Source: Candidatus Hydrogenedentota bacterium (lineage in GTDB: Bacteria; Hydrogenedentota; Hydrogenedentia; Hydrogenedentales; SLHB01). From it: a stretch of DNA of 64,000 nt. The stretch spans positions 2,631 through 66,630 of the forward strand of contig DAOTMJ010000027.1 in NCBI GenBank assembly GCA_035450225.1, in the 5' to 3' direction. Positions 6,776-61,478 of this stretch are shown piece by piece; within the stretch, counting starts at the first letter, position 1; every line of letters begins with the position of its first letter. A program made the translations under genes and the position numbers. A model generated the notes under the pieces. The model had not been told where the DNA came from. It worked only from the letters and a program-made list of their open reading frames with translations, and ran no database searches.

Positions 6776-7037
6776 TTGAGACTCTCCATGCATGCGCTAG
6801 GAATTGTTGTCCGTATTATTATCTAGGGTTATATAAAAATCAAGTCTTAGTAATAGTCGTGTTTGTTGAATCGGTTGATATCCGGGCAAGTCGTTGCGTG
6901 AAAGCAATTTGGCTTGTTTCTATGTTGACAGTTTTTTCTGACAAATCATCCACGCTGTCCACACCTTTGGATTTCTAAAGAACTTTGAATGGCCTTTCAC
7001 GGTCTGATGACCGCCAAGAATGTCAATTTTTTTCCAT

Positions 7038-7046
7038 TTATGCACA
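7038..7046 (+). promoter_or_regulatory. DnaA box (TTATGCACA)
   Basis: Matches the TTATNCACA consensus. Confidence 0.5.
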
Positions 7047-17917: not shown

Positions 17918-20074
17918 TTGCATTGCTTCCGCAAAAGGTATAACGTTGGGCTTCGTATTGAGCCCGTGCTACAGGCTGGTAAACGAATGGGGTGTACCGT
18001 GCACAGGAACATCGAGGAGGCGCTGCGCGAAAGCGAGCAACGGCTGCGCGCCTTGGCCGACAACCTTTCCAATGCCGTGGTTTATCAGTTGATGGCCGAA
18101 CCGGACGGCGGACGGCGCTTCACTTATATCAGCCGATCGGTGGAACGCCTGAACGAAGTAACTGTGGAGGAGGTGCTGGCCGATGCCGGGGCGCTTTACG
18201 GCCAGGTCTTGCCCGAATATCGCGCATTGGTTGCGGCACGCGAGGAAGAGGCCTTGAAAACACTCACTCCATTGCATGTCGAGGTGCAGAGCCGCCTTCC
18301 CGGCGGCCGCCTGCGGTGGTTTGAATTTACTTCCACTCCCCGTTATATAGCGGAGGGCGTTCTGGTCTGGGACGGGGTCGAAGTGGACATTACCGATCGC
18401 AAGCGGACCGAAGCGGAACTGGAAAGACTCGTTGCGGAGCGAACGTCGGAGTTGATCGAGACCAATCAGAGGCTGCTGAATGAGATTGCCGATCGGTCCC
18501 AAATGGAGATGTTGCTTCGGGACAGCGAGGAACGTTATCGGTCGCTTTATTGGGAGTCCCGGGACGCCATCATGGTTTTGTCGCCGGAAGAGGGTTTTTT
18601 GGCCGCAAACCCGGCCACGGCCGCCCTGTTTGCCTGCCGTGACGAGCAAGAGTTTATCACCCATTCGCCGGCTTCCCTGTCGCCGGAATTTCAGCCGGAC
18701 GGCATCCGATCGGATGTCAAGGTCCGTGAGATAAAGCGCCTTGCCCTGGAAAAGGGCTCCCGCTTTTTCGAATGGACGCATCGCCGGGTGGACGGGACTG
18801 AGTTTCCGGCCACGGTATTGCTTTCGGGTTTCAATTACTGCGGCAAGCGCCTGCTGATGGCCACTGTTCGCGACATTACCGAAAGCAAGCGAGCCGAAGC
18901 GGAACGGCGGGATCTCGAAAGGCAAGTTCAGCATGCGCAGAAACTGGAAAGTCTCGGCGTGCTTGCCGGCGGACTCGCCCACGATTTCAACAATATTCTG
19001 CATCTCATTCTTGGCAACGTGCATCATATCAAGAAAATCGTGTCGGATCTGTCGCCCGCCCGCCCGTTTATCGAAAATATCGAACGTTCCACGCGCCGCG
19101 CCGCGGTGTTGACGCGCCAGATGCTGGCCTACGCGGGCAAAGGGTCTTTCACTCTTCAAGTATTGAATTTGGGCGATCTTGTGGGCGAAATCGTCGGGCT
19201 GATTCAGTCATCCATGTCAAAAAAAGCGCGGTTGCGGCTGAATCTGGTCGGCGATCTTCCGCCGATAGAGGCCGACGCGGCCCAAATCCAGCAGGTGGCA
19301 ATGAATGTGATACTGAATGCGGCCGAGGCGTTGGATGCCGATGAGGGCGGCGAGGTGATCGTGTCCACTTCGGCGCTTTATTGTACGGAAGACGATTTGC
19401 GCGGCAGCCGTGTTATGTTTGGCGCTCCGGCGGGGGATTATGTTTGCCTGGAGGTGACTGATACGGGATGCGGAATGGACGGGGAAACTTTGGAACGGCT
19501 CTTCGATCCGTTTTTCACAACCAAATTCACGGGTCGTGGATTGGGAATGTCGGCGGTGCTCGGAATCGTACGCGCCCATAAAGGCGTCATCCTGGTTCGC
19601 AGCGCTCCGGGCGCGGGCACGACGGTCCGGATACTTCTGCCCGTGGCGGACCGTACTGATCCGGCGCCATCCGACAGCGCGCCGGCATCTGCCGCGGACC
19701 GGCCCTCATGCGCAGGCGTCATTTTGTTTGTGGACGACGAGCCTGACATGCTGGAACTCGGCGCCATGACGCTTGAACAGATGGGATATCGCGTTCTTAC
19801 GGCCGCCGATGGTCTGGACGCACTCGAATTGTTCGAGGAGCAATCGAAGGATATTGGCTGTGTGCTGCTCGATCTGAGCATGCCGCGCATGGACGGTGTG
19901 CAGACGCTGGCGGAATTGCGCCGAATCCGGCCGGATATCCCCGTCATTCTAGCGAGCGGTTACGCCGAACGCGAACTTCAATCGCGCCTGGCCGGCTTGG
20001 AAGTAAGCGCGCTGATCGAAAAACCTTACGATTTCGACAAGTTGGCGTCTATTCTGCAACAGGTGCTTGCCTGA
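17918..20074 (+). CDS. PAS-domain sensor hybrid histidine kinase / response regulator
   Basis: PAS regions, H-box LAHDFNNIL, HATPase GRGLGMS...GAGTTV, and a C-terminal receiver domain (ILFVDDEPDML...LLDLSMPRMDG). The true start may be downstream at MGCTV or a GTG. Confidence 0.85.
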   Translation: MHCFRKRYNVGLRIEPVLQAGKRMGCTVHRNIEEALRESEQRLRALADNLSNAVVYQLMAEPDGGRRFTYISRSVERLNEVTVEEVLADAGALYGQVLPEYRALVAAREEEALKTLTPLHVEVQSRLPGGRLRWFEFTSTPRYIAEGVLVWDGVEVDITDRKRTEAELERLVAERTSELIETNQRLLNEIADRSQMEMLLRDSEERYRSLYWESRDAIMVLSPEEGFLAANPATAALFACRDEQEFITHSPASLSPEFQPDGIRSDVKVREIKRLALEKGSRFFEWTHRRVDGTEFPATVLLSGFNYCGKRLLMATVRDITESKRAEAERRDLERQVQHAQKLESLGVLAGGLAHDFNNILHLILGNVHHIKKIVSDLSPARPFIENIERSTRRAAVLTRQMLAYAGKGSFTLQVLNLGDLVGEIVGLIQSSMSKKARLRLNLVGDLPPIEADAAQIQQVAMNVILNAAEALDADEGGEVIVSTSALYCTEDDLRGSRVMFGAPAGDYVCLEVTDTGCGMDGETLERLFDPFFTTKFTGRGLGMSAVLGIVRAHKGVILVRSAPGAGTTVRILLPVADRTDPAPSDSAPASAADRPSCAGVILFVDDEPDMLELGAMTLEQMGYRVLTAADGLDALELFEEQSKDIGCVLLDLSMPRMDGVQTLAELRRIRPDIPVILASGYAERELQSRLAGLEVSALIEKPYDFDKLASILQQVLA

Positions 20075-27145: not shown

Positions 27146-29437
27146 TCAGCGAGGCAGCAGCCATACTTCCGAGAGAAACGATCGATGCCGCCAGTTGAGG
27201 TGCGCTTCATCGGGCGCATCCCATGTCAGGGTAATCTTGCCCGTCGCCACGGCGGCCCTTGGAACGGGGAACTCCTTGATCCCGCCAAGTTCCTTGTCGT
27301 AACGCGCGGGTTGGACCCGCGCGCCGTTGATTTTCAGCAGCGATTCGCCGCGGCCGGTGGTCCGGACCACGTACTCGCGCTGGGTGTCAATGCCCTCATA
27401 CACGACGCCGATCGGCCAGTCGAGCGAACTGAGCCACGACAGCCGCCAGCGGTTCGGCCCCAGCCATGTGCCGTACCCCGGCAGCGGCGCGCGGAGATCC
27501 TCGACATCGAGCAGCGTCGGTTCGCCCCGCAACACGTGGGGATTGCGCGCCGTGTCGCCGACAACGTCGTATCGGCTGCCGGGCACGGGGTTTTCCCATG
27601 TGCGGATTCGGTCGAGTTCGGCGCATTTCGCCGCCTCGTCCGGCAGGGCGCGGATCCGCGCAAACTGGTCTTCCAACCACCAGCGGTTGTTCAGGGGCCG
27701 GTCGAGGAAATCGAGCACCGCGCCGCGCTCGAAATTTCTTGCGTGGTATTTTTCGACGCTCATCTGCATGCCGATTTGACGGAACAAGTCCTCGCCGTCG
27801 GTTTCGAGGCGCGCGCGCAGCCCGGCGCAGGCCGGATCGGTTCCGGCGCGCCGCAACACGTCCTCCGCCGCGTCCATCGCGGCATCCGCGCCAATGTCCA
27901 CCGCCCGGGCCAGCGCGGTGTGGGCGTCCTGTTCCAGCGCGGTCTCGTGCAGCAGCCGTCCGCGAACATAGGCGTCGTACGCCGCGCGAAAGGCCAGCAA
28001 CCGCCAACGCCAGTTGTCCCGGAGTTCGGGGGCGCGCGCCTCGATGGCCTGCCAGCGCGCCCACACGGCGTCAATCGCGCCGTTCAGCGCGGCGGATCCC
28101 TCCCAGTTCGTTTCCAGGGCGAGGATGGCGTCGGCGGCGTCGGCGGCAACGCCCGGTCCAAAAAAGAAACGCGCATATTCGATGAGCATATCGCGGACGC
28201 CGCGATCCGGATCCCATGCGAGCAGGGTCCAGACGATCTTGTTCACGTCATCATGCACGCCGTCCGAGTACGAAAGGAATCCGTCCGTGTACGGCGCAAA
28301 GCGGTTGTGGACGCGCGCATAGAAGCGCGGGCGCGGATTGACGCATTCCCGCCCTTCGGTCAGCGCGAACGCGGGATCCCACCATGGGACGGGAAACTGG
28401 CACAGGATCGTGTGCGTGATGTCGGGATAGGCGCGCAAGCGATAGGTCTTCGCGAGCCGTTGCCGCGTTTCCGCGAGCGGCGGGCTTTGCGGTCCGTGGA
28501 CCACGCCCGCCAGCCATTCCGGCGCCTTTTCGTTCATGTACGCGAAAAACCAGTCCACCTCGTCTCTTTCGAAGCCTTGGAGCGAAATCCACATCGTGGC
28601 CTTCGGATGATGCGCCCGCAACCGTTGCGCGGCCTGTTCGAGAAACGGCATGACGTGTTGCGGGGCGTTGTCCCCCGGATCGCCGCCTGGAAAGAACACC
28701 GCGTCGAGCCGCGGGCAGGTCCGGTAGAAGGCTTCCCACATGTCCAAGGCTTCGGCGCACACCGCCGGATCGGCCAGATCGGCCTCCACCGGCGTCCAAA
28801 TCCAATAGTCCAACCCGTACCGTTCGCATATCTCGCTCATGGCGATGTTCATGCGTTCGCGCGTCACGGGCATGACGGGACTGGACTCGTCCTGGAATGG
28901 AATGTTTTCGACGGCGTTCGCGCCGAACAGGGCGAGTTCGCGAATGTAGCGATCGTACCGCGCCTCGTCCCACGCGTCGTAACTGTTCGCCGTGTGGCGG
29001 TAGCCCAACTGGTGACCGCGGATGGCATAGGCCGGCCGGGTCTCGATAGCGAGATCGACCGGCAGCGTCACGCGCCCCGGCGCCCAATCCATTTTGCGCA
29101 GGAAATCCCCCACGCCGTACAACGCGCCCCGCCGATCCGCGCCCTCGATGCGCACCAGTCCACGGTCCGCGTCCACGGACAGGCGGTAGGCCTCCGGCGG
29201 CAGATCCTTCGCGGCGAAACCGATTTCGACGGACGGTCCCGACGGCGGGCGCGCGTCCGTTGTGGTCCATTCGAGGCCCGTTCGCGCCTTCACTTCCTCG
29301 ATCAACACGCGCGCCGCGATCCGATCCGCCGTCGAAACGCCGGAATCGCCCGCGACGACCACCGCCTTCGTCAGATCAATCCCGCCGTGCATCGCCATGA
29401 AACATATTACTCCCGACAGACATAGAGAACCGGTCAT
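27146..29437 (-). CDS. Secreted 763-aa putative glycoside hydrolase (GH20/GH89-like fold?)
   Basis: Signal peptide. RGALYGVGDFL resembles the GH20b-domain 'GafYG' block, followed by a TIM-barrel-like region. Family assignment uncertain. The opposite-strand 774-aa ORF is an Arg/Ala-rich GC artefact. Confidence 0.45.
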   Translation of the reverse strand: MTGSLCLSGVICFMAMHGGIDLTKAVVVAGDSGVSTADRIAARVLIEEVKARTGLEWTTTDARPPSGPSVEIGFAAKDLPPEAYRLSVDADRGLVRIEGADRRGALYGVGDFLRKMDWAPGRVTLPVDLAIETRPAYAIRGHQLGYRHTANSYDAWDEARYDRYIRELALFGANAVENIPFQDESSPVMPVTRERMNIAMSEICERYGLDYWIWTPVEADLADPAVCAEALDMWEAFYRTCPRLDAVFFPGGDPGDNAPQHVMPFLEQAAQRLRAHHPKATMWISLQGFERDEVDWFFAYMNEKAPEWLAGVVHGPQSPPLAETRQRLAKTYRLRAYPDITHTILCQFPVPWWDPAFALTEGRECVNPRPRFYARVHNRFAPYTDGFLSYSDGVHDDVNKIVWTLLAWDPDRGVRDMLIEYARFFFGPGVAADAADAILALETNWEGSAALNGAIDAVWARWQAIEARAPELRDNWRWRLLAFRAAYDAYVRGRLLHETALEQDAHTALARAVDIGADAAMDAAEDVLRRAGTDPACAGLRARLETDGEDLFRQIGMQMSVEKYHARNFERGAVLDFLDRPLNNRWWLEDQFARIRALPDEAAKCAELDRIRTWENPVPGSRYDVVGDTARNPHVLRGEPTLLDVEDLRAPLPGYGTWLGPNRWRLSWLSSLDWPIGVVYEGIDTQREYVVRTTGRGESLLKINGARVQPARYDKELGGIKEFPVPRAAVATGKITLTWDAPDEAHLNWRHRSFLSEVWLLPR

Positions 29438-29565
29438 GATCGCCTTCCTTGAGCATGTTCTTTGCGCGTATTGTACACGAATTCAACGCAAAGGCGCGGA
29501 AGACGTAAAGAATCGCGAACAACCTCGTTGTTCCTTGAAAACAAGCGTCGTCCGTGCCGTCCGAA

Positions 29566-30729
29566 TCAATCCGTTTCGGGATGGATGATCACCTCGATCG
29601 GTTCCCGGATGCCCTGGACGGCCGCGTATTTTCGCAGACGGACCAAGTACGCGCTAGTCATGACGGTTCCGCGCGCGACAAGCGTCCTGCCCTGCGTGGT
29701 CAGGATGGGCGCGGCCAAGGTCGTGCCCGGTCCAAGGTCCTTGAATGCAATCGAGATGACCTTGCCCTTGTCGGCTTCCGGCGGCGCAACCACCGCGGGT
29801 ATTTTGGAAAACACGGCCAGCACGGCGGGATCGTATTTTTCCTCCTGGTCTTGCAGGGCCTTGACGCTGTCCATCCGCGACAATCCCCTGGATCGCAATT
29901 GAAGATAATCGGCGGCCACCTTCAGCACGCGGCTCCCCAGGGGGATTTCCTTGCCGGCCACGCGGTCGCGGGGAAAACCGGATCCGTCGAAATACTTGTT
30001 CTGATACATCACGATTCGGGCGACGTTTTCCAGCCGGGGAATGCGTTCGAGCAGTTCGGCCCCGATGGCGGGAACGCTTTCGACCGTCCGCTGTTCCTCA
30101 TCGTCGAGCGATTCGCCGCCGATGGCCTTCGTGAGAATTTCGGGCGGAAGGGCCAGCATGCCGATCTGGCACAGCATGGCCGCCAGTTCGATTTCCCATG
30201 TGTTTCCCATGCCCATTTTGGCGGTAATGGCCCGCGCCAAGTTGCGGAGATGCACGGAGCGACCGAATATTTCGGGATTGGCCCACGAGAGCACTTCGAT
30301 CAACAGTTCCGCCGTGCCCTGAAGCGTCCCCTCCAAGACCTCCTTCTCGGCGGTGACGAGGCGGTACTGCCGGATGGCGGCGATGAGCGACTCGCCCATC
30401 AGGGCGGCGGGGCACGGTTTTGTCAGAAAACGGAACACGCATCCCTCGTTGACGGCTTCCATGGCCAATTTGATATCGGCGTTGCCCGTCAACATGATTC
30501 GGACGGTGTCGGGCGCGATTTCGCGCACCTTTTTCAGAAATTCGATGCCGTTCATCAACGGCATGTGCATGTCGGCCACGACCACCGCGAAGGGGCCTTT
30601 TTCCTGGATTTCGCGCAGTCCGGCATGCGCGCCTTCCGCGGTGCGCACCCGCAGCACATGCTGTAGTTTCCGCTGGTACGCTTCAAGCACGTTCGCGTCG
30701 TCGTCCACAAAGAGCACACGTTCTTCCAC
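29566..30729 (-). CDS. Response regulator, REC + HDOD-like domain (degenerate HD)
   Basis: Likely GTG start at 30729 with a GAGAGGAGA RBS 2 nt after the upstream gene's stop. REC VLFVDDDANVL...VVADMHMPLMNG; the HDOD-like region has CQ in place of HD (AAMLCQIGML). Confidence 0.65.
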   Translation of the reverse strand: MEERVLFVDDDANVLEAYQRKLQHVLRVRTAEGAHAGLREIQEKGPFAVVVADMHMPLMNGIEFLKKVREIAPDTVRIMLTGNADIKLAMEAVNEGCVFRFLTKPCPAALMGESLIAAIRQYRLVTAEKEVLEGTLQGTAELLIEVLSWANPEIFGRSVHLRNLARAITAKMGMGNTWEIELAAMLCQIGMLALPPEILTKAIGGESLDDEEQRTVESVPAIGAELLERIPRLENVARIVMYQNKYFDGSGFPRDRVAGKEIPLGSRVLKVAADYLQLRSRGLSRMDSVKALQDQEEKYDPAVLAVFSKIPAVVAPPEADKGKVISIAFKDLGPGTTLAAPILTTQGRTLVARGTVMTSAYLVRLRKYAAVQGIREPIEVIIHPETD

Positions 30730-30731
30730 GG

Positions 30732-31943
30732 CTATTCGTCTCCTCTCTCGTCCATTTCCGCGCAGGCGTGTTCCCATTCGGGCAGGCGATCCGCCAGGCC
30801 CAGTCTTTCGAGGTACGCCAGGTCCACTTTCGAGGGGGGGCAGTTGAACAGTTCCTTGCGCCGCGCGAAGGCCAGCGCATCCGCGACATGGGTGGCGGCG
30901 AGAGGCGAGAAGGCATTTCCGATGGCGTCCATGGGCCGGTGATGAAACGCCACGGCCTCGACGATGGGATGCGGCAGCCCCCAGATGCCCAGCAGATAGG
31001 CGCCGACCTCGCCGTGCGTGCAGCCCAGCAAGGCTTTTTCGGCGGCCGCCAGCGGAAGGGACTCCGCGACGGCGCGATCGAAAACGCACGCGTAGTCCTC
31101 CGGGCAGGCGCTGGCCAGCACCAGTTCGCCCGTGTCGTGCAACAAACCCGCCGTGTAGGCGTCGTTTGCCGTTTCCTTGGGCGCCGATTCGGCGCGGCAG
31201 ATGGCCTGTACATAGGCGCCCACGATCATGCTGTGACGCCACAACGCGTCCAGCGAAAAGCCGCGGGGCAATTTCGCGCCTTCCAGCGGGGCGAAGAGGC
31301 CCGTGGTAAGAACCAACGCCCTGACCGTATTCAATCCAAGCAGGGAGACGGCCTGGGTGGCGCTGGCCACCTGCCGCCTGAGACCAAAGAAAGCGGAGTT
31401 GGCCAGTTGGAGTATTTTCGCGGTCATGGCCAAATCGGTCTCGATGATGCGGCCCACGTCCGCAATCGAACTGTCCGGCGATTTCAGCGCCTCGCACAGT
31501 TTCGCATAGACCCGCGGAACCGGCGGCAGCGCGCCGATCTGCGCCACGACGGCCTTCAGGGAATCGCTCGACAGCAATTCGCGCAGGGCAAAGGCCCTGT
31601 CCACGCACTCCTTCAACAGCGCCGGCTTGCAGGGCTTGCTGAGGAACTGGTGCGCTTCCCCCACCGACCGATAGAGGGTTTCGCTGTCCGACTGGCCGGA
31701 CAAGACGAAACGCAATGTGTCGGGATGGCGCTTCTTGACCTCGGCCAACAACCGGCTGCCATCCATGCCGGGCATGCGCATGTCGGTCACGACGACATCG
31801 AAATGACGGGCTTCGAGCTGTTCGAGCGCCTGCGCGCCGCTCCGGGCAAAGGCCATCTCCCATTCGCGCTGCATCGGAAACAGCATCCGTCGCAATCCAT
31901 CCAGCACGTTGGGCTCGTCGTCAACAAAGAGAATGCTTTTCAT
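30732..31943 (-). CDS. Response regulator, REC + HDOD domain
   Basis: MKSILFVDDEPNVL...VVTDMRMPGMDG receiver; HDOD with AGLLHDTGELVL. Confidence 0.8.
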   Translation of the reverse strand: MKSILFVDDEPNVLDGLRRMLFPMQREWEMAFARSGAQALEQLEARHFDVVVTDMRMPGMDGSRLLAEVKKRHPDTLRFVLSGQSDSETLYRSVGEAHQFLSKPCKPALLKECVDRAFALRELLSSDSLKAVVAQIGALPPVPRVYAKLCEALKSPDSSIADVGRIIETDLAMTAKILQLANSAFFGLRRQVASATQAVSLLGLNTVRALVLTTGLFAPLEGAKLPRGFSLDALWRHSMIVGAYVQAICRAESAPKETANDAYTAGLLHDTGELVLASACPEDYACVFDRAVAESLPLAAAEKALLGCTHGEVGAYLLGIWGLPHPIVEAVAFHHRPMDAIGNAFSPLAATHVADALAFARRKELFNCPPSKVDLAYLERLGLADRLPEWEHACAEMDERGDE

Positions 31944-32001
31944 GTCCGCCTCCCCGTTCGGATAAACCGGGAACCTTCAACGGCCGCGGCCGAAACAGGG
32001 T

Positions 32002-33126
32002 TCATTCGCCCTCTTCTCCGAATCGATCGTACACCTCCACAATATGGTTGTTTTCGTCGAGAAACGATTCGAGCATGCGCGGATCGAAGTGGCTTCCCTC
32101 GCCTTTTTGCAGGATGGCGACAGCCTCCTCGTTGCTCATGGCGGGTTTGTAGGGCCGTTTCGATCGCAGGGCGTCGTAGACGTCCACCAAGGCGACCATG
32201 CGCGCCTCGACGGGGATGTCCTCGCCGGCCAGCCCGTCCGGATATCCGGAACCGTCCCATTTCTCGTGATGGCTGCGCGTGATGACGGTGGCCATTTGCA
32301 GCAACGGGGACGGCAGCGCCTCGTCGTCCGTCGTATATCCGTTCGGGATGGCCTGCGCGGCCATCATGATGGATTTGGGCGGCTGCCGCAGAATGCTTTC
32401 GCCGATTTCCGTGTGAGTTTCAATCACGGCCCGCTCCTCCGGCGTCAAGGGGCCTTCCTTGAGCAGAATCTTATCCGGAACGCCTATTTTTCCGATATCG
32501 TGCAGCGGGCTGGTCAGAAAAAGCAATTCCGCGAACCCGCCGTTTCTTCCCATCCTCCGGGCAAGGATGTAGGAACACCACGCGACGCGCGCCACGTGAT
32601 TGCCGGTCTGGTCGTCGCGGAATTCGCCCGCCTTGGCCAGCCGCCACACGACCTCGCGGTGCGATTTTTCCAATTGCCGGGTGCGTTCGCGGACAAGGCC
32701 ATCCAGCACTTCGACCTGGTTCGCGAGATGATCCTCGAATTCCTTGATGCGGATTGCGCTTCGCAAGCGGGCGATCAGATCCTCGCGGCCCACGGGCTTG
32801 TTCAACAGATCGGTCGCGCCCAGATCGAGCACGCGCCGCTTCAGCGTCCGATCGCCTTCGCCGGTGAGGATGATGATGGGGATCCGGGATAATGCCTCGT
32901 CGCCGCGCACGGCCTCGAGGAGGGCGATGCCGTCCTTTTTGGGCATGCGTATGTCCGACACGATCACGTCGAACGCCTCGCGGCGCAGCGCGTCGAGCGC
33001 GTCGTCCACGCCGGTGCAAAAGACGCCTTCCCACGGCTCGCCGCACAGGTCCAGCAAACGCCTCAGGACTTCGAGCACGTTCGGTTCGTCGTCAACGAAC
33101 AAGAGTCTCTTTTTCCCTTTGGTCAT
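32002..33126 (-). CDS. Response regulator, REC + HD-GYP phosphodiesterase domain (c-di-GMP)
   Basis: LLFVDDEPNVL...VVSDIRMPKKDG receiver. HD-GYP motifs HDIGK and HHEKWDGSGYP. Confidence 0.85.
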   Translation of the reverse strand: MTKGKKRLLFVDDEPNVLEVLRRLLDLCGEPWEGVFCTGVDDALDALRREAFDVIVSDIRMPKKDGIALLEAVRGDEALSRIPIIILTGEGDRTLKRRVLDLGATDLLNKPVGREDLIARLRSAIRIKEFEDHLANQVEVLDGLVRERTRQLEKSHREVVWRLAKAGEFRDDQTGNHVARVAWCSYILARRMGRNGGFAELLFLTSPLHDIGKIGVPDKILLKEGPLTPEERAVIETHTEIGESILRQPPKSIMMAAQAIPNGYTTDDEALPSPLLQMATVITRSHHEKWDGSGYPDGLAGEDIPVEARMVALVDVYDALRSKRPYKPAMSNEEAVAILQKGEGSHFDPRMLESFLDENNHIVEVYDRFGEEGE

Positions 33127-33132
33127 ATTCCT

Positions 33133-34410
33133 TCACCCTTCGACAACGGGCAGCCGAATGATGAACGCCGTTCCTTTTCCGACCTCGCTTTCGACGGAAA
33201 GGGTTCCGCTGTGCTTGTTCACCACGACGTTCCGCGCGATGGCCAATCCCTGGCCGGTGCCCTTGCCCACTTCCTTGGTGGTGAAAAACGGATCGAAAAT
33301 GCGGTCGCGGAACTCGTCCGGTATGCCGGTTCCGGTGTCGGAAATGCGAATCTCCACCCAATCGCCGTCGCGACGGGTGCTAATCATGATTCGTCCCTTG
33401 GTTTCCGAACCGTCGCCGACAACGTCTGCGATAGCGTGCGCCGCGTTCACGATCAGATTGAGAAAGACCTGGTTGAGTTCGGCCGGCAGACACCAGACAC
33501 GGGGCAGACTCGGGTCCAGGTCCATTTCGAGATCGGCCACGTATTTCCATTCGTTGCGCGACACGGTGGCCGTGCTCTCGATACAGTGATTGATGTCCGC
33601 GAGGGTCTTCTCCGTCACGCCGGGATGCGAGAATTCCTTCATCGCCTGGACGATGGACGTGATCCGTCCGATGCCCTCGATGGACTGCGCGATGGCGCGG
33701 GGGATTTCGTTCGCAAGGTACTCGAAATGGGCCGTTTCATTCAGATCGCGGGCCTCGTTCAACAGATCCGGCGGCAGGGCGTCCGCCGCCGGCGATTCCA
33801 TCAGCCTGCGAAACAGGTTTATCAGGGCCACGATGTCCGCGTGGGCCGACTGGAGGAATTCGAGGTTGTCGCCCACGTATTGCGCGGGCGTGTTGATCTC
33901 GTGGGCGATGCCCGCGGCCAGGCGTCCCACCGATTCCAGTTTCTGCGCCTGGTTGAGGGCGCGTTCGAGTTGGAGGGCCGTACGCGTTTCGTCCGCCTCG
34001 GCTTCCATTTTCCGCGCGTGCCTGTGCGCGCGGCGGTATTCGCCGGCGCGGCGGATGGTGTGTTCGAGCAGATGCGGGTTGCAGGGCTTTTCGAGAAAAT
34101 CGAACGCGCCCAGTTTTACGGCCTTGACGGCGCGCGGAATGTCGCCCTTGCCCGTCAGAATGACGGGAACGGTGTCCGGATGTTTCCCGTGCATGGCGTC
34201 CAGCACCTGGAAACCGTCCAACTCCGGCATCTCGATGTCGAGCAGGGCCACGTCGAATTCCGCTTTGCCCATCGCCTCCATCGCGGCGGCGCCGTCGGAC
34301 ACGGTCTCGCACGCGAAACCCTTGCCCAAGAGTTCGCGCGCAACCAGTTTCAGCAGGTTCGGGTCATCGTCCGCGACGAGTACGCGGATCGCGTTGGTTT
34401 CAGCATCCAT
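33133..34410 (-). CDS. Response-regulator/histidine-kinase hybrid (REC-HisKA-HATPase)
   Basis: Start MDAETNAIRVLVADDDPNLL preceded by GGGAG. H-box IAHEINTP, N/G boxes, C-terminal GKGTAFIIRLP. Confidence 0.8.
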   Translation of the reverse strand: MDAETNAIRVLVADDDPNLLKLVARELLGKGFACETVSDGAAAMEAMGKAEFDVALLDIEMPELDGFQVLDAMHGKHPDTVPVILTGKGDIPRAVKAVKLGAFDFLEKPCNPHLLEHTIRRAGEYRRAHRHARKMEAEADETRTALQLERALNQAQKLESVGRLAAGIAHEINTPAQYVGDNLEFLQSAHADIVALINLFRRLMESPAADALPPDLLNEARDLNETAHFEYLANEIPRAIAQSIEGIGRITSIVQAMKEFSHPGVTEKTLADINHCIESTATVSRNEWKYVADLEMDLDPSLPRVWCLPAELNQVFLNLIVNAAHAIADVVGDGSETKGRIMISTRRDGDWVEIRISDTGTGIPDEFRDRIFDPFFTTKEVGKGTGQGLAIARNVVVNKHSGTLSVESEVGKGTAFIIRLPVVEG

Positions 34411-34575
34411 CTGCGGGATCTCCCATGGGGTTGTCCGGCAATCCGCGCGGCAGGCGGAAGGCCGGGAATTCAAGGGACGAACAGGACATCGGCGACCTGC
34501 CCCCGCGGAAGAAAAAAAACGGTACGGATGGCAGAAACGTAAACAACGTAGCAGAGGCTTCCATCTTCTTTTTGA

Positions 34576-34600
34576 ACGCGGCAAAGATGCCGCGTCTACG
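34576..34600. repeat. REP-like hairpin element, family B (ACGCGGCA-AAGA-TGCCGCGT + CTACG)
   Basis: Perfect 8-bp stem; intergenic between 33133..34410 and 34675..39129. Confidence 0.7.
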
Positions 34601-34674
34601 TTGAACACCCTTATATTCATCGTTCTTCCTGTTTACGACAAACCTCACACCAGCCGCCATCCACCAACTCCCGA

Positions 34675-37600
34675 CTACGGACTCCTACTCTCCAACAATT
34701 CCCTGATTTTCCGCAGCAGCGCCTCGGGCGAATACGGTTTCTGGATCAATTGTGTGCCGTCGTGCAGCACGAAGTTCGTGTGGACGGCGTTTACGCTGTA
34801 TCCGCTCGAAAAGAGGAACCGCAGGTCCGGATGGTCCTTGTGTAGCGCCTCGTAGAGTCCCTTGCCGCCGAGTTCCGGCATGACCACGTCCGCCAGCACG
34901 AGATCTATCTTTTCTTTGCTTTCGCGAAATACGCGGAGCGCATCCATGCCGTTGACCGCCGTCTGGACCGTGTACCCCGCTTTTTCGAGGATGCGCGCGG
35001 CGAGGTTGCGGACTATTTCGTCGTCTTCGGCCAGCAGGATGGTTTCGTTGCCGCCGCCGGCCCGCTGTTCGATCTTGGCGCCGATTTTCGAAGCCGCCCG
35101 TTCGACGATCGGCAGGTAGATCTTGAATGTGGAGCCCTTGCCCACTTCGCTGTACGTCTGGATCATGCCTTGGTGCTGCCGGACGATGCCGTAAACGGTG
35201 GCCAGTCCCAGCCCCGTGCCCTTGCCCAATTCCTTGGTGGTGAAGAACGGCTCGAAGATATGCTTTCGGGTCTCGGCTTCCATGCCGTGGCCGGTATCGG
35301 TGACGCTCAGCAGCACATACCGTCCCGGAACGGCCCATGCGTGCGTCGCGCAGTAGTCGCTGTCGAACACGACATTCTCCGTTTCGATGGTCAACTCGCC
35401 GCCGTCGGGCATGGCGTCGCGCGCGTTGACGCACAGGTTCATCAACACCTGCTCCATCTGGCCGCGGTCGGCGTGGACCGTGCCCAGGCGGTGACCGGGA
35501 ATAATGCTTAAGCGAATATGTTCGCCGATTACCCGGCGAATTATTTTCATGATATTTTCGACGACCTCGTTGAGGTCGAGGTCCTCCATTTCGAGGACCT
35601 GCCGGCGGCTGAAGGCCAGCAGTTGCCGGGTCAGGCCCGCGGCGCGTTCGGCGGCCTTGGCCACTTCCTCGGCGAATTCGCCCAGTCTGTCTCCCTCCGG
35701 CAGGTGGTCGAGTATCATCTGGTTGTATCCCACGATCCCCTGCAGGAGGTTGTTGAAATCGTGCGCCACGCCGCCGGCCAACTGACCCACCGCCTCCATC
35801 TTCTGCGCCTGTATCAACTGTTCCTGCATCTGTTTGCGATCGGTGATCTCGGCAATCATATGAATCGCGCCATTGAAACGGCCATCGGCATCCACAATCG
35901 GATCCACGGTGATTTCGTACCATGATGTGCCTATTTGCAATTCCATGGTTTCACGCCGCAGGCTTGTGCGTGCCCGAAGTATTGGGCATTCCGCAATTGG
36001 AGCGTCTGTGCCGTGGACGACGTCCCAGCAATGCTTGCCCGCCAATTCTTCGGGCTTCAGACCGAAAATCCGATAGGTAGGATTATTGCATCGCAGTATT
36101 TTTTGGGTGGAATCCAAAATCCAGATGGCGTCGTGGGTCGAATCGAAGGTCTTCTGCCATTGTTGGCCGATCCGGGCCGCCTCTTCTTCGGCGCGGACCC
36201 GGTTTACCGCTTCGGCCAGGATATCGGCCACCGCTTGCACGAAAAGCACATCGTCGTTTGTGAACGATCGCCGTTGCCGGGTATGCAGGCCGAGCACGCC
36301 CCAAGGTGCTTCCTGCTTGCCGATAATCACGCTGATGCCGCTGACCACTCCGTGATCGCGAAGCAGGGGCGGGCCCTTGAAACGCGTTTCCGAACGCAGA
36401 TCGTCCACAATGACGGGTGTTCTGCTCTTGAGCGTGAATCCGGCTTGCGAATCCAAGTCCGTTCCAACGGTGGCCTTTCCGACAAGCCCCTCCTTCCACC
36501 CGATTCCGGCGCGCAGCAGCAGTGCACGGCCATCGGGAAGCAATTCCAGGATTTTACTATATTCTGTTCCCACTATTTCGGCGAGTTGGACAACCGCCTT
36601 GTCGAACAACGATTGTAAGTCGTTGTTTTCCAAGGCGGCTTTGGCGAGTTTTGCCAAGGCGCGATGTTGTTGTTCCTGGACAAAAAGTTTTTCTTCAAGC
36701 CGCCTGCGGTCAACCATTTCCCCGATCAGGCGGGCCGAGGCTTCCAGCCGGCGCTTGGCCATCTCGATGATAAACGGGGGACGCGATTCATAGGCTTTGG
36801 CGCGTTCCAGCAATTCTTCATGGCTGACACCGTAGGCCGCGGCGAGTTCAGCCAGTTTCGCGGGATCGCGGGGCGGGTCGCCGTAGCCGACGTTGATGGA
36901 ACCGACAATTTCATCGCCGGCCTTTACCGGAACGGCGTACACGTGAATCCCGCCGGCGCATTCGATATCCACGGGGCCGCCGGATGCCATGGACGCCCGC
37001 GATGCGCTTTCCCAGCAGGATTCGTGGCATAGCCATTTGCCGCAAGCCAATGCGACGCGGTTGTCGTCCGTGCCGCACAGCTGCCGCGATGCGTTATCCA
37101 TGAATTGGCACCAACCAGAAGACAATATGCCCAGGGCATAATCGCCATTCTTCTCGTACACGGCCGCGGACGTGCCCAACAGATCCAGATATTCCGAAAC
37201 GATATCGAGCAGCATGTCCTTCCCCACGGACGACCGGATCAATCCGTTCTCGTTCAATTCGGTAAGATCCCCGTAGAGCGGCGCATACGGGTCGTCGGCC
37301 GTGGGGGGCTTTTTCGTCAGCAGCCATTCGATGCGGCGCAGGGCCTCTTCGCCGCGCACCGTTTCGGCCGATTTCCAGACCGCTTCCATCAGAAGGGTCA
37401 ATTCCAGGATGTCCGTTTCGGTGTAGTCCGTGGATTTGTTGGCAATACCGACCACGGCGACAATCCGGTCCTGGTGGAAAATGGGGACGGCCAGGAATCG
37501 CGTGAGCCTGACATGACCTTCGGGATAGCCCTTTTTCAAGGGGTGATCGGCCTGAAAATCGTTGACGAGGATCGGCTTCCGCTGGCGGACGGCCTCGCCC

Positions 37601-39129
37601 CAGATACCCGTCTTGTCCAGTTCGTAGCAGGTCTGGGGATTGATGACGGCGCATTCCTTCATCACATCCTTTGACCAGGTGTTTAGCTCGAACTGCCTGC
37701 GCTCCTCATCATAGAAGTAGATATATCCGATCTTGCTTTCGGTCAGGCCGATGGCCTTTTCCAGCGCATAATCGAGGAAATCCTGCCGGTTTTCGGCGCG
37801 ATATTGCAGAATGTCCGCCAGTACTTTCAGGCGCTGCATATTTCGTTGGTTCTGTTCCTCGACTCGTTCGCGCGTCCGGCGAATGGAGATCAAAGGCGCC
37901 AGGTAGGAAGCGACGGATTCCATCCGGCTTTCGTCGGTTTCATCGTATTCCGTCTCCTTGTTCGCCACGACAATCAATCCAAACAGTTCGTCTTCAAAGA
38001 AAATGGGAACCGCAATGCACCTCGTCAACGACACATGACCGGATGGCGGATGCAACGGCGCATTGGTTCGCAGGGTCCGTTTTTCCAACAGGGATTGCCC
38101 CCAAAGACCGCCCCATGCCGCGCGCGGAAACACGAAGGTTTTGTCCCGAACCTGGCAACAATCCCAAACATGACGGGTAAGCGAGGGACAGACCAGATCG
38201 CCGTTGTCGTTGATGTAACCGAACAAGCCCAGCGGGCTTCCTGTGTGCCGCAGGATTAGTTCCAGGACGTCCGCGTAGGCCTCGTCGCCCGGATGCGTCA
38301 ACAGGACGTCGGCAATGCCCTTTTGCAGGGCCAGTTCGGACAAGGTTTGCCGCAAGGTTTCTTCCGTCCGTTTTTTATCGGTGATGTCTAAAAATACGGT
38401 GGAAAAAAACCCTTTGGCCGGGCTTCCCGCGGTTATGGCGAGATGTTTTCCGATGGGAGGGAAAAAACTCTCGAAAGAAGCGGCTTCGCCCGTTTCCGCA
38501 ACACGTGTGTAGATATCGAGAAAGGGGGCCGATCCCGTTCCATACAGTTCGGAGGCCAGGGATCCCGCGGCGCGATCCCTGGACAGGCCGGTGATGCGTT
38601 CATAGGCGGGATTCACGTCGAGAATCCGGTAATCCACCGCCCGTCCGTCTTTGTAGACGATTTGGTCGAGGCAACAAGCAGCCGCCATGTTTTCGAAGAT
38701 AGCCCGGTACCGTGCCTCGCCTTCCCTTGAGAGGGCCATGATCCGGCCTTGTTCGAAATGCGACCGTATGCGGGCGACACATTCCCTGCCATCGAACGGC
38801 ATGGTGATGCAGTCCACCGCGCCCAAGCGAAATCCCTCTTCGATTTCCGCGGCCTCGATGTTGCGCCCGGCCGAAGCAAGGAACACAACGGGGATGTCGC
38901 GCGTTTCCTTGCGATTCTTCAGGCGGCGGCATACTTCGAGTCCGCTCATGTCCGGCAGGTCCGTTTCGATTGCCATCAGGCCAGGACTATACGTGGACGT
39001 TATCCGTAACGCTTCCTCCCCGCTGGATACTGTTTGCACCGAAAATCCTTCCGAAACAAGGATATTCGAGAGAAATTGCATCGGTTCCGAGTCGTGACCG
39101 ACGATCAGGATTGTATTTGCGTATGCCAT
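34675..39129 (-). CDS. Giant hybrid sensor histidine kinase (REC-PAS-GAF-GAF-PAS-HisKA-HATPase-REC), 1484 aa
   Basis: N-terminal REC ([11 protein letters not shown]...), multiple PAS/GAF-like blocks, [10 protein letters not shown]-box, HATPase [11 protein letters not shown], and C-terminal REC ([13 protein letters not shown]...[11 protein letters not shown]). Confidence 0.85.
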
Positions 39130-39334
39130 GAAAAAAGCCTTTCCCTTGGAACGCCTTTCATAAGCACGTAACGGTTGAAGTCCAGTTTGTTGCGAAAAGG
39201 GATCCCCGGAAAATAGGCGATCGCTTCTTCCGTGAAGTAACCGCGATCCTCGATTTCATGGGTGGTAATGCAGAAGACGGCTATAGCGTTGTGAACAGGC
39301 GCCGTTGTCGCGTCGGGCCGCCGCACGGGATCGA

Positions 39335-40240
39335 TCATGGCCGGTTCTCCGCGAGGCGCAGGGCGTTGCGTCCGGCGAGGGCGCTGCGCGCGGCGTCGAG
39401 GAGGGGTTTCATGCGGATCGGTTTCGCCAGCACGAACAGGGGCGAATAGTTCATCGTTTGGTCCATCAATTCGCTGTCCGGATAACCCGTGACGACGATG
39501 ACCGGCAAGGTGTCGTCGAGTTCGCGAATCGCGCGGATGACCTGCACGCCGGAGCCGCCCGGCATGACGAGATCCACGAACGCGATGTCGGGCGCTTCCC
39601 GTTTCATTTCCGCGATGGCCTCGTCGGCCGTGGCCGCCGGGACGACCCGGCAGCCGGCCTGTTCGAGCAGAGTCGTGAACGCCTTGCGGATCGCCTCCTC
39701 GTCGTCCACGACCAGTGCGCGGGGCGGGCGGGCGGCCAGCCGATCCCCCGCCTTGCGCCAGAGCGCCGGAACCCGCCCGTCGGCGGCGCCGGCGTCCTCC
39801 GGAGGCGGCGCTAAATCCCCGTTGTCCGTTGCGTCGTCCTCGCCGGCGATGCCGGGGCTGAGATAGTTTTCTCCGGCCCGGATCGTTTCCAAAGCCGCCG
39901 GCAGTTCCTCGAAGGCGCGGTCTTCGATCATGAAACCCGACGCGCCCGCCATGAAGGCGCGCAACGCGAGACGGCTGTCGTTGTGCCGCGAAATCACGAG
40001 GATCCTCGTGGCCGGCGACCGTTCGACGAGCGCCCGTATGGACGGCACAAGGTTTGCCCGGGCCATTCCGTGGGACAGAATCACCATGTCCGGATGTTCC
40101 TGTTCCGTTAGACGCAGCATCTCGCCGGTTTCGTTCACGGTCCACTTCAGGTCGAAGCCCGCGTGATGTTCGATGGCGCCGTGCATCGTTTCGGCGGACG
40201 CGCCGGCGAAGAGCAGTTTACAGGTCGCTTGGGTTGTCAT
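39335..40240 (-). CDS. Tandem receiver protein (pseudo-receiver + canonical REC)
   Basis: Start MTTQATCKLLF. The first domain is REC-like but lacks the acidic pocket; the second has ALVVDDEEAIRKAF...DIAFVDLVMPGGSG. Confidence 0.6.
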   Translation of the reverse strand: MTTQATCKLLFAGASAETMHGAIEHHAGFDLKWTVNETGEMLRLTEQEHPDMVILSHGMARANLVPSIRALVERSPATRILVISRHNDSRLALRAFMAGASGFMIEDRAFEELPAALETIRAGENYLSPGIAGEDDATDNGDLAPPPEDAGAADGRVPALWRKAGDRLAARPPRALVVDDEEAIRKAFTTLLEQAGCRVVPAATADEAIAEMKREAPDIAFVDLVMPGGSGVQVIRAIRELDDTLPVIVVTGYPDSELMDQTMNYSPLFVLAKPIRMKPLLDAARSALAGRNALRLAENRP

Positions 40241-41187
40241 TTTTCCGAATGCTCCATGGAACCGCTTTCGTTTCCGTTGCCGGCCACGCCACCGCGCGCG
40301 CACACACGGCGTTGCGCCGTCCTGCTTTGCAATGGCGCCGGATGGCAGCCGTCCGGCCGCTCATCAAGCAATACTATACTATACAATAAACGCCGGCGGT
40401 TGGGTATCAGAAAAATCCTGATACCTGGACTTTGTGCATGACCGATGAGGATACCCGTCAAATGAGGTCGTACACCGGACCGGTGAGTCCTGTAGGGATG
40501 GTTTGAGAAGATCCGGAAGAAAGCCAAAAGACCGTCCCTCCGGGATTTCGTGCCGAACGCCGTCTCATTCGACCGATTCTGAAAAAAGTATAAACGCCTT
40601 GAGGCTACCGTGTTCTCGAAGTCGTGAACGTCTCAGAATGTAACGCCGATTTCCAAATCGGCTTGCTGAAATACAAAATGCCGATCGGCATCTTGCCGCT
40701 TTCAGGCGTGTTGGCGAGTCTGAACCCGTTATGAGCCCGAAATTCTCACCACAAAGAATGCATGGATCGCGTGGAAGCCTCGCGATGGCCCAAGACCCCT
40801 GCGTGTTGCGCGCGGTATCAGAAGGGATGATGTGACGAACCATCCGTCACGAACAGAAGCCCCTTTTCCACGCGCGTAATTCGTTCATTCGTACACTTTT
40901 GTGATCCTTGCGATCCTTGCGGTTGTGAGAGATTCGGATTAGGCGCGCGGTTTTGCGGATTTGTCCGGACAGTGGTACTATCGTTGCGATCATGACATTC
41001 CGGCAAGTGGGCGGAATGGAACATCGTTCACATCGAGACAGTGGTCCTTGACGGGGCCGCAAACGGTATCCCGTGCCGGTGGGCGCAGGTGTTATCGCCG
41101 CGCACGACGGGGATTTTGCGGAGTCGGGCGCCTGTCCGCCCGGTGAAAAGGCGTATGTGCGCGTGGCGGCCTGCCCCCTCGCTCGCG
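40241..41187. other. ~950-bp non-coding, hairpin-rich region (candidate structured RNA / long leader)
   Basis: No credible ORF on either strand. Several perfect stem-loops: GGTATCAG-N7-CTGATACC (~40400), CCGATTTCCAAATCGG, ATGCCGATCGGCAT plus GCGGCATCTTGCCGC, and GTGACG-N7-CGTCAC (~40830). Confidence 0.4.
40675..40699. repeat. Family B-related hairpin (ATGCCGATCGGCAT-CTTGCCGC)
   Basis: Inverted orientation of the GCGGCAAGATGCC core, in the long non-coding region. Confidence 0.45.
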
Positions 41188-42516
41188 ATGGGTCCGAAAA
41201 TGGATAGACTCTTGAGGATTTTTAGCGCGTTATTGGCAATGGGCCTGCTGGCGTTGGCGGTCGGCTGCGGCTGCGGCGTATCGAAGGACGCGAACGTAAT
41301 CCGCGTGACGCGGAACATCGGCGGGCGCGAGGGGTTTCGCCGGCATTTCGACGGGTGGAAGGCGGCCTTTGAGAAGAAGAACCCCGGCTGGATCATGGAA
41401 TTGATCGATCTCGGCAACATGGAAGGAACGGAATATTATAAATCCCGCATTGCGACGGACGATCTGCCGGAAATCGTCATGACGTGGGAAATGACGAATT
41501 TCCTCGCCGACGGCGGGCACCTGGTTCCCCTTCCCGACAGTTATTACGAAAAGTTCGGCATCGCCTTGCCCGCCGCGTACAAGGGCAAACGGTACAACAC
41601 GCAGTGCGGCCTCCAATTGCAAGGCATCGTCGTCAATAAAAAGATGTGGGACGACATCGGCGTGACGGAACCGCCCGCGACGTGGGATGCGTGGTTCGCC
41701 GCGTTCGACCAACTCAGGGCGAAGGGTTATAAGCCGCTGGTGTTCGGCGGGCGCGAATGGCCGGCCTCGATGCCGCTGTTCTACGCCATCGCGTCGGATC
41801 TGTACGATCGCGCCACGACGCCGGAAGCCGGGACGCCGTCGTGGACGATTCGCCGCGACAAGGGGGAAATCTCGTTTGCAACGGACCCGATCATGCCGAA
41901 GATCATGGAGACAATGATCCGGCTCGTCGAAAAGTACGTTGACAAGGGCGCGCTCAGCGACGGGTACAACGAGGAGCAGCGCGCGTTCTACGGCGGCAAG
42001 GGCGCGACGTGGATGATGGGTTGCTGGATGGCCGGCGACATCGAGCCGAACAAGGTGGATTTCGACATGGCGTACTGGCCCGTGCCGTCGCTTGTCGGAC
42101 GGCCTCCGGTCTTCATACGGACATCCGGCATGCAATCGGGGTGGGCCGTCACGACCTCCGCGACGGGCGAAAAACTCGAAAAGGCCATGTCCGCCATGGA
42201 ACTGTTCTACGATCCGGAGGTCTACCAGTTGTTCCTGGACGGCGAGTGCCAGTTCGCCGAGGCCGCCAAAGTGCCCGTCAAGGGACCGAGGAGCGATTGG
42301 CCCCCCGCGCAGCGTCTCATTGACGACATGCAGGCGAACCTGAACAAGTATGGCACGACGCTGGGATACCATGTCGCGCTCGACGATTTGCCCCCGCCCA
42401 CCATGACGCTTATCCTGGCAAGGATCATGCAGGAAATCGTCGCCGGCGAACGCGACGTCAATAAGTTGCTCAAGGCGCTCGACGCCGAATGGGACAGCGC
42501 CCGAAAAGGGACGTGA
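41188..42516 (+). CDS. ABC transporter substrate-binding lipoprotein (sugar-type, SBP family 1)
   Basis: Lipobox LALAVGC. Length and composition typical of carbohydrate SBPs (KGYKPLVFGGREWPASMP...). Confidence 0.75.
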   Translation: MGPKMDRLLRIFSALLAMGLLALAVGCGCGVSKDANVIRVTRNIGGREGFRRHFDGWKAAFEKKNPGWIMELIDLGNMEGTEYYKSRIATDDLPEIVMTWEMTNFLADGGHLVPLPDSYYEKFGIALPAAYKGKRYNTQCGLQLQGIVVNKKMWDDIGVTEPPATWDAWFAAFDQLRAKGYKPLVFGGREWPASMPLFYAIASDLYDRATTPEAGTPSWTIRRDKGEISFATDPIMPKIMETMIRLVEKYVDKGALSDGYNEEQRAFYGGKGATWMMGCWMAGDIEPNKVDFDMAYWPVPSLVGRPPVFIRTSGMQSGWAVTTSATGEKLEKAMSAMELFYDPEVYQLFLDGECQFAEAAKVPVKGPRSDWPPAQRLIDDMQANLNKYGTTLGYHVALDDLPPPTMTLILARIMQEIVAGERDVNKLLKALDAEWDSARKGT

Positions 42517-61465: not shown

Positions 61466-61478
61466 GGGGCGGGATCCG

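Follow-up and report, generated by a model that had tools for sequence, protein, structure and literature searches.

The 64,000-nucleotide (nt) stretch analysed here (the window), from a Candidatus Hydrogenedentota bacterium, carries at 29566-40240 on the minus strand six consecutive intact genes, g6 to g1, each of which gave a Pfam Response_reg (receiver, REC) match, in exactly the span that an earlier note on this DNA had given. We asked what kind of signalling system such a row of receiver genes encodes. The best reading is that the locus is neither a linear phosphorelay nor a new class of module, and that it is a variant of the known Hno-type circuits, which are linked to nitric oxide. We lean, with some reserve, towards a branched two-component network with two tiers, cytoplasmic and of the Hno / NosK-NosR type, whose conserved part is the block g4 to g1. 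The genes, in the direction of transcription, are as follows (lengths in amino acids, aa).

g6, 39335..40240, minus strand: 301-aa REC-REC protein without an output domain (Pfam Response_reg in two stretches)
g5, 34675..39129, minus strand: 1484-aa soluble hybrid sensor kinase (Pfam)
g5/g4 gap, 34411..34674, minus strand: 264 nt, non-coding
g4, 33133..34410, minus strand: 425-aa REC-input histidine kinase (HK; Pfam REC and HATPase_c)
g3, 32002..33126, minus strand: 374-aa REC-HD-GYP protein of the RpfG family (Pfam REC, HD_5 and HD)
g2, 30732..31943, minus strand: 403-aa REC-HDOD response regulator (Pfam HDOD, E-value 1e-58)
g1, 29566..30729, minus strand: 387-aa protein with a GTG start, consisting of a REC, a degenerate HD-GYP domain and a C-terminal domain

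Pfam and an alignment to CheY agreed with the earlier assignment of a 1484-aa PAS/GAF hybrid kinase, a REC-HK, a REC-HD-GYP and a protein made of a pseudo-receiver and a REC, while the two REC-HDOD genes of that note were reduced to one, g2, as g1 proved to be a REC with a degenerate HD-GYP domain (HD_5, E-value 2e-39). Eight REC domains were counted in total, one more than the seven of the note, since g5 has an N-terminal REC besides its C-terminal one. Six of the eight (those of g1, g2 and g3, the N-terminal REC of g4, and the C-terminal RECs of g5 and g6) are canonical and keep the full phospho-acceptor set D12/D13/D57/T-S87/K109, so that, as had been supposed, the receivers of these intact genes are not generally degenerate. 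The remaining two are pseudo-receivers: the N-terminal REC of g5 has G,H/E/A/M at the acidic pocket/Asp57/Thr-Ser87/Lys109 positions, and that of g6 has G,A/S/S/E, without an acidic pocket, with Ser at the Asp57 position and with Glu at the Lys109 position. The RECs of g1 to g4 share 32-37% mutual identity and at most 29% with the other four, and form one subfamily. Because none of the six proteins has a transmembrane-like segment, the system looks cytoplasmic, as the earlier note had stated of the sensor kinase. Identical gene models were found on 21 independent contigs of metagenomes or metagenome-assembled genomes (MAGs) with an identical g3 protein, two of which are 100% identical to the window. 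Proteins related to g1 bear the label Candidatus Hydrogenedentes, the top genome match of g5 is a Hydrogenedentota MAG, and the habitat of the host bacterium is most likely anaerobic digesters.

We then investigated the co-conservation of the cluster, using its most distinctive protein, g1, as the query. Relatives of g1 number thousands, the best 120 being all full-length with 46-100% identity, and a metagenome scan with the g1 alignment gave further, more distant members at 29-44% identity. The neighbourhoods of eight g1 homologues from Hydrogenedentes, Nitrospiraceae, Armatimonadota and Verrucomicrobiota MAGs and from further contigs, together with a Polyangiaceae locus, all showed a kinase without a Pfam HisKA match, followed sometimes by a REC-HD-GYP gene and then by a REC-HDOD gene and the g1 homologue. 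The conserved set was thus seen in Hydrogenedentota, Nitrospirota, Armatimonadota, Verrucomicrobiota and Myxococcota, with tblastn identities across loci of 48-69% for the g4 core, 45-72% for g2, 37-67% for g1 and, where present, 56-68% for g3. Where the sequence reaches 1.5 kb or more upstream of the g1 homologue (31 loci), a REC-HDOD gene lies within 5 kb of it in 30 cases and directly upstream on the same strand in 24; where it reaches 3 kb or more upstream (28 loci), a g4-type kinase core lies within 7 kb in 25 cases and is colinear in 19. An active-type HD-GYP was present in just six of the 31 cassettes. As a control, an HDOD neighbour was found in one of five intact-HD REC-HD-GYP loci, which had been retrieved via their REC alone and had adequate flanks. 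The co-conservation of g4 to g1 thus exceeds chance and, since it is strong for all four genes, a functional link among them is very likely; we regard the cluster as a genuine signalling module that has co-evolved, with an upstream layer specific to the lineage.

A comparison with a sister species separated this block from the genes ahead of it. The products of g1, g2, g3 and g4 are 90%, 92%, 83% and 84% identical there, and the downstream genes are alike. In place of g5, the sister species has an 815-aa hybrid kinase, which has in common with g5 the C-terminal ~540 aa (74%) and one GAF domain (55%); no g6 homologue was found in the recovered part of its contig, and a further PAS-PAS kinase, whose core is of the g4 type, is inserted ahead of g3. 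Co-conservation in relatives, which the earlier note had regarded as decisive, thus held for g4 to g1 across phyla and failed for g5 and g6 even at this distance. The minimal form, consisting of a PAS-HK, a REC-HDOD and a REC-pseudo-HD-GYP, occurs in Armatimonadota, and other loci have two or three g4-type cores with differing PAS, GAF or REC inputs. Since g5 is replaced, g6 has no detected counterpart and the inputs of the g4-type cores vary, the stable unit is the kinase core with its regulators, and the sensory input is exchangeable.

Two of the retrieved loci have peculiarities of their own. The metagenome contig Ga0181516_10000253 (L107, 7919-14845) has three g1-family paralogues and three g4-type kinase cores, and is a case of local cassette amplification. 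In a Polyangiaceae MAG (L039, 8312-20881), the trio lies between two CheA-like kinases, CheB, a triple-REC kinase and a REC-PAS hybrid kinase; in Myxococcota, then, a chemosensory-like cluster surrounds the cassette, in contrast to the window, where no CheA, CheW or methyl-accepting chemotaxis protein was found in the cluster or its flanks, in agreement with the earlier note as to CheA and CheW. A scan of genome contigs with the whole of g5 yielded mostly paralogous kinase cores, with only L039 and a few others informative.

In the regulator g1, a long helix joins a canonical REC to a degenerate HD-GYP domain, which carries the HD_5/HD-GYP-like Pfam match, and a ~65-aa beta/alpha C-terminal domain follows. 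Its motifs are changed from HD to CQ, from HHE to YQN and from GYP to GFP, and the lysine of HDxGK is gone, as is another His ligand. Since HD and HHE are absent in every member of the g1 family, most of which have SQ at the HD position, the domain is an old pseudoenzyme. An AlphaFold2 model built from 48 sequences (predicted local distance difference test, pLDDT, 89.5) gave a REC, a connecting helix, a helical domain of the HD-GYP fold and a small C-terminal domain, and Foldseek matched it to the REC of 3kcn and to the HD-GYP domains of DvhD (9rbz), PmGH (4mcw) and PA4781 (4r8z). The C-terminal domain, modelled alone with a pLDDT of 88, had no Pfam match and no significant fold neighbour in the PDB. 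The best NCBIfam match of g1 is NosR (NF053512), with 247.4 bits, below the 400-bit cutoff, and the alignment spans profile positions 165-416 of 422, including the C-terminal domain. These comparisons suggest that g1 is a HnoD/NosR-like inactive REC-HD-GYP protein.

The other three proteins of the block have intact signature residues. In g2, the HDOD match (E-value 1.2e-58) covers profile positions 1-196 of 196, the REC (2.2e-21) conserves D/S/K, and the REC residues are kept in 44 members of the g2 family. The REC-HD-GYP protein g3 (REC 3e-22, HD_5 3.5e-34, HD 6.5e-16) has the complete catalytic set (HD, H, HHE, GYP, D) in LHDIGK, HTEIG, SHHEKWDGSGYP and VYDAL, and is thus predicted to be an active cyclic-dinucleotide phosphodiesterase; its orthologues stand in the same position in the loci L088, L091, L092 and L093, with 56-83% identity. 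The kinase g4 has a canonical REC, a coiled linker, a domain for dimerization and for histidine phosphotransfer (DHp) with the H-box AGIAHEINTP, which the Pfam HisKA model misses, and a HATPase_c domain. The H, N, G1, F and G2 boxes of g4-type kinases are invariant in 47 family members, and g4 also bears the H-E-x-x-T motif, which is typical of bifunctional kinases. It is the sole copy in the window of the kinase core that accompanies the conserved module, and its only input domain is a REC, whereas the kinase cores of most of its relatives have PAS/GAF sensors of their own.

This component set resembles that of the Hno network of Shewanella oneidensis and Vibrio (HnoX-HnoK, HnoS, HnoB, HnoC, HnoD), in which several kinases converge on several REC proteins, with two kinases and three regulators (Plate & Marletta 2012, via PMC6335343, PMC8846402). 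HnoD of S. oneidensis is a REC-degenerate-HD-GYP protein without hydrolysis of cyclic di-GMP (c-di-GMP), and it inhibits the REC-EAL phosphodiesterase HnoB, an inhibition that is relieved by phosphorylation (PMC6335343; PMC8846402; bioRxiv 10.1101/2021.11.05.467447). The window shares with Hno the kinase(s), the predicted active REC-phosphodiesterase and the REC-degenerate-HD-GYP. However, its phosphodiesterase is of the HD-GYP and not the EAL type, the cluster lacks a HnoC-type transcription factor and a histidine phosphotransfer (Hpt) protein, and its input consists of a REC-input relay kinase and a giant PAS/GAF/PocR hybrid kinase. No domain of a haem sensor, whether H-NOX (HNOB) or NosP (FIST), was found in the cluster or in the flanking genes examined.

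A tblastn search of plasmids with g1 located a cluster on a Vibrio coralliilyticus plasmid that encodes a REC-HDOD, CheY, CheC, a PAS-HK, a REC-GGDEF-EAL, a REC-degenerate-HD-GYP, an Hpt and a HAMP-HK, with an H-NOX gene and its kinase 5 kb away. The PAS-HK and the g4 core share 36% identity (E-value 7e-66) and the H-box, the whole of the REC-HDOD aligns with g2 (22%, 2e-24), and the REC-degenerate-HD-GYP, with the motifs HE / HQD / GHP, has the C-terminal domain in common with g1. Compared with the window, an EAL enzyme takes the place of the HD-GYP, and the protein identities are 22-36%. A Pseudoalteromonas plasmid match was a mere pair of a kinase and a REC-HD protein and was discarded.

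A further parallel is NosK of Burkholderia, a sensor-less kinase with a HEINN H-box, which phosphorylates NosR, a REC-degenerate-HD-GYP protein (PMC12570481). Both the H-E-I-N-x H-box of the kinase and the nearly full-length alignment of g1 to the NosR profile agree with this pair; the window differs from it in that no FIST/NosP gene is present in the cluster and in that NosR has the motifs HG-GTP where g1 has CQ...GFP, and no REC-HDOD is reported for nosRPK. Within the RpfG family (Galperin & Chou, bioRxiv 10.1101/2021.11.05.467447), g3 has the full motif set, and g1 is an inactive protein of the same architecture, from which it is set apart by the extra conserved ~65-aa C-terminal domain and the clade-wide loss of HD and HHE. 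The REC-HDOD architecture of g2 is that of X. campestris GsmR and D. vulgaris DVU0330 (PMC4114195), a family for which hydrolysis of c-di-GMP is not known; the g2 clade, however, stands nearly always beside a REC-pseudo-HD-GYP and a dedicated kinase, a pairing not described for GsmR or DVU0330 in the literature consulted. In the literature on REC-HDOD, on HDOD with phosphotransfer and on HDOD/HD-GYP operons we found no description of the set of kinase, REC-HDOD and REC-pseudo-HD-GYP, so that the earlier suggestion of a distinct undescribed module is right as to the set, and not as to the components, which match those of the Hno and NosK/NosR networks.

We next considered the upstream layer. 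The domain order of g5 is pseudo-REC, PAS, GAF, GAF, PocR, GAF, PAS, HisKA, HATPase_c and canonical REC, and its HisKA with the H-box AHDFNNLL, its HATPase_c and its C-terminal REC with the Asp make it a hybrid histidine kinase. Its best NCBIfam matches are CckA-type (447 and 350 bits, below the 1000-bit cutoff), and the resemblance to CckA is confined to the kinase-REC core. The PocR-type domain (residues ~640-806) is cysteine-rich (GWCQFMDN...LCG) and may sense redox or metal. No Hpt domain was found by Pfam in g1 to g6, in the 77-aa reading frame between g6 and g5 described below or in the open reading frames (ORFs) of the gaps. A CckA-like hybrid kinase core lies directly upstream of 5 of 10 REC-input g4-type kinases and of 2 of 20 without a REC (Fisher p = 0.026, for complete cases, which are not phylogenetically independent), and the sister species and loci of Nitrospiraceae and Verrucomicrobiota show this placement as well. 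The CheA3 -> CheS3 pair of Rhodospirillum centenum is likewise a cascade with a REC-input kinase; there as in the window, a kinase with a REC as its only input stands behind another kinase, a likeness that we take as a lead only. At 17918-20074 on the plus strand, 10 kb from the cluster, the window encodes a further hybrid histidine kinase of 718 aa (PAS-PAS-HisKA-HATPase_c-REC), a possible alternative phosphodonor for g4.

The spacing of the genes also bears on the division of the cluster. The earlier note had put all spacers at 2-60 nt, which is correct for g2/g1 (2 nt), g3/g2 (58 nt) and g4/g3 (6 nt) and incorrect for g5/g4 (264 nt) and g6/g5 (205 nt). Its short g5/g4 spacer arose because the g4 ORF was extended N-terminally to 34620, an extension that we rejected: its GC content at third codon positions (GC3) is 0.51 versus 0.79, a non-coding pattern, and it is not conserved in the sister species. 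Conservation of the 264-nt gap with L093 is limited to the last ~80 nt, an 86-aa ORF within the gap has no Pfam match, and the gap may be a transcription-unit boundary or the site of an internal promoter. Three further features belong to the spacers and flanks of the cluster:

Reading frame s77, 39105..39338, minus strand: doubtful 77-aa ORF in the 205-nt g6/g5 spacer, called by metagenome annotators
Terminator-like hairpin, 29517..29533, minus strand: 33 nt past the g1 stop codon, from a consensus scan
Intergenic region between g6 and a divergent solute-binding-protein gene, 40241..41238: ~1 kb, unusually long

The reading frame s77 overlaps the g6 stop by 4 nt (ATGA) and the g5 start by 25 nt, and its sequence is invariant among near-identical contigs. 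It had no Pfam or NCBIfam match and no homologue across ~170 fetched loci, and its GC3 of ~0.6, against 0.71-0.82 in the adjacent genes, speaks but weakly for coding; doubtful as a gene, it either encodes a small protein peculiar to the species or is non-coding. The hairpin at 29517..29533 may be the end of the transcription unit; terminator-like sites in the region are not above shuffle expectation, and for this hairpin the position alone is suggestive. The promoter and terminator scans likewise gave counts at or below shuffle expectation. An Rfam scan of 29000-42000 detected no riboswitch, for c-di-GMP or otherwise, in the 264-nt or ~1-kb gaps, and a Guanidine-II match inside g3 was sub-threshold and was discarded. 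The ~1-kb intergenic region is presumed to be the promoter region for the upstream unit; it has an AT-rich TATAGTATAGTAT stretch ~130 nt ahead of g6, and a 92-aa ORF in it has no Pfam match. A caaggatcgcaaggatc direct repeat and a terminator-like hairpin at 40524-40543 on the minus strand lie in the same region.

On the observed gene structure, domain content, catalytic-residue status and co-conservation, a mechanism can be proposed, in which we infer every phosphotransfer step, the inhibition of g3 by g1 and c-di-GMP as the substrate. The hybrid kinase g5 would integrate cytoplasmic signals via its PAS, GAF and PocR domains, autophosphorylate, and set the phosphorylation state of the g4 REC, for which it is the most likely partner; its own C-terminal REC, and perhaps g6 too, would act as sinks or modulators. 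Since its sole input is a REC, g4 would be a relay kinase that is set by another kinase and that in turn controls the phosphorylation of g3, g1 and g2. Phosphorylated g3 would degrade c-di-GMP, and g1, by analogy with HnoD, would bind and restrain a phosphodiesterase, most simply g3, until it is phosphorylated. The REC-HDOD g2, which nearly always accompanies g1, probably works together with it, and g6 would be a lineage-specific accessory that may serve as a phosphate sink or connector for g5.

Several observations weigh against this two-tier network. Its main weakness is that 25 of the 31 conserved cassettes have no adjacent active HD-GYP; since most cassettes thus lack a phosphodiesterase in cis, inhibiting such an enzyme cannot be what g1 and g2 generally do, and they need a function that is independent of g3, either on a target encoded at another site or as effectors themselves. 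In addition, conservation with the core fails for g5 and g6 already in the sister species, and g5 stands apart from g4 by the 264-nt gap. With a C-terminal REC in g5 and no Hpt found, the exit of phosphate from g5 is unaccounted for. The association of REC-input kinases with upstream hybrid kinases is modest and, for cases that are not phylogenetically independent, suggestive. The Vibrio HnoD-like protein is just ~23-27% identical to g1, the NosR score of g1 is 247 against a cutoff of 400, and phosphotransfer in this cluster is argued from sequence comparison.

The earlier note had proposed a single multi-step phosphorelay, in which all six genes would form one operon and a linear His-Asp-His-Asp relay would end in c-di-GMP outputs. 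The single strand, the three junctions of 2-58 nt and the succession of a kinase with a C-terminal REC and a REC-HK would fit such a relay. It is nevertheless improbable, for no Hpt was found in the six proteins or the gap ORFs, two gaps measure 205 and 264 nt, the sister species keeps g4 to g1 while replacing g5 and having no detected g6, and three parallel response regulators per kinase core point to a branched topology. A division into two independent units, g6 and g5 with other targets and a self-contained g4 to g1 whose g4 REC would serve as an intramolecular sink or an autoinhibitor, or receive its input from a kinase farther away, is a less remote alternative, to which we give a minor share of our confidence. 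It draws on the non-coding signature of the 264-nt gap, on the loss of co-conservation of g5 and g6 with the core, on the half of the REC-input g4-type kinases that have no upstream hybrid kinase, and on the presence of another hybrid kinase at 17918-20074; on the other side stand the more frequent occurrence of a hybrid kinase upstream of REC-input than of sensor-bearing g4-type kinases and the recurrence of this placement in other lineages. A mere accumulation of two-component genes that have nothing to do with one another, in a genome with many of them, is scarcely credible for the cluster as a whole. Adjacent response-regulator genes are common in bacteria with large signalling repertoires, and the promoter and terminator scans were not above chance, but five phyla or more share the order and content of g4 to g1, each gene at an identity of the orthologue level, so that such an accumulation is contradicted for these four and possible for g6 only.

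Two further alternatives concern the output. It is conceivable, though unlikely, that the output is not c-di-GMP turnover at all, g1 and g2 being paired pseudo-phosphohydrolases that, as effectors, would bind nucleotides or contact other proteins and so influence another process, for example motility or secretion, with g3 as an occasional add-on. Besides the six of 31 cassettes with an active HD-GYP, the family-wide loss of all metal ligands in g1 and its conserved extra C-terminal domain without a PDB fold match agree with this, and the HDOD proteins studied lack c-di-GMP hydrolase activity and affect motility (PMC4114195; PMC6543031). However, HnoD and NosR, the sole characterised proteins of the g1 architecture, are tied to c-di-GMP phenotypes, and the intact HD-GYP gene of the window is translationally close to the kinase, with a 6-nt spacer. 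A broader form of the idea, which we advance tentatively and with a little more credence, is that the trio of kinase, REC-HDOD and REC-pseudo-HD-GYP with its C-terminal domain is an ancient cassette of many phyla in which the two dead hydrolases act jointly without needing a phosphodiesterase in cis; they might then form a heteromeric nucleotide receptor or a protein-protein switch.

If this joint action were true, it would provide the first general functional context for HDOD and for the C-terminal domain of HnoD-like proteins. To our knowledge, HDOD is a common bacterial output domain without an established mechanism, and the few examples of degenerate HD-GYP regulators that we know of are proteobacterial (HnoD, NosR). 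That a dedicated kinase core keeps company with a REC-HDOD and a HnoD-like REC-pseudo-HD-GYP in five phyla or more, while its sensor domains are freely swapped and an active HD-GYP joins it at times, makes the cassette a compact test system for the role of HDOD, for the generality of pseudo-phosphodiesterase inhibition and for the exchange of inputs on a fixed core. For the window itself, the practical outcome is a corrected annotation, that of a variant of the Hno-like network.

Finally, some features elsewhere in the window were recorded. The dnaN gene lies at 5669-6793 on the minus strand, with a 740-nt intergenic region of low GC (0.425) upstream of it (to 7532), in which DnaA-box-like sites occur at 7038, 7163, 7375 and 7386, including two perfect TTATCCACA; this region is probably the chromosomal origin. 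No dnaA adjoins it, and the next gene, at 7533-8693 on the plus strand, encodes a BNR/sialidase-like protein. A 1330-aa ORF at 53570-57562 on the plus strand, with just weak C-terminal leucine-rich-repeat matches, may encode a repetitive, compositionally biased surface protein; the segment at 54-56 kb has the highest GC of the window (0.668) and an extreme AT skew (0.355). A tRNA-Thr(GGT) was predicted at 61212-61287 on the plus strand, and since it falls within the spans of two long ORFs, 60182-61465 on the minus and 60284-61543 on the plus strand, at least one of these is probably spurious or shorter than listed.

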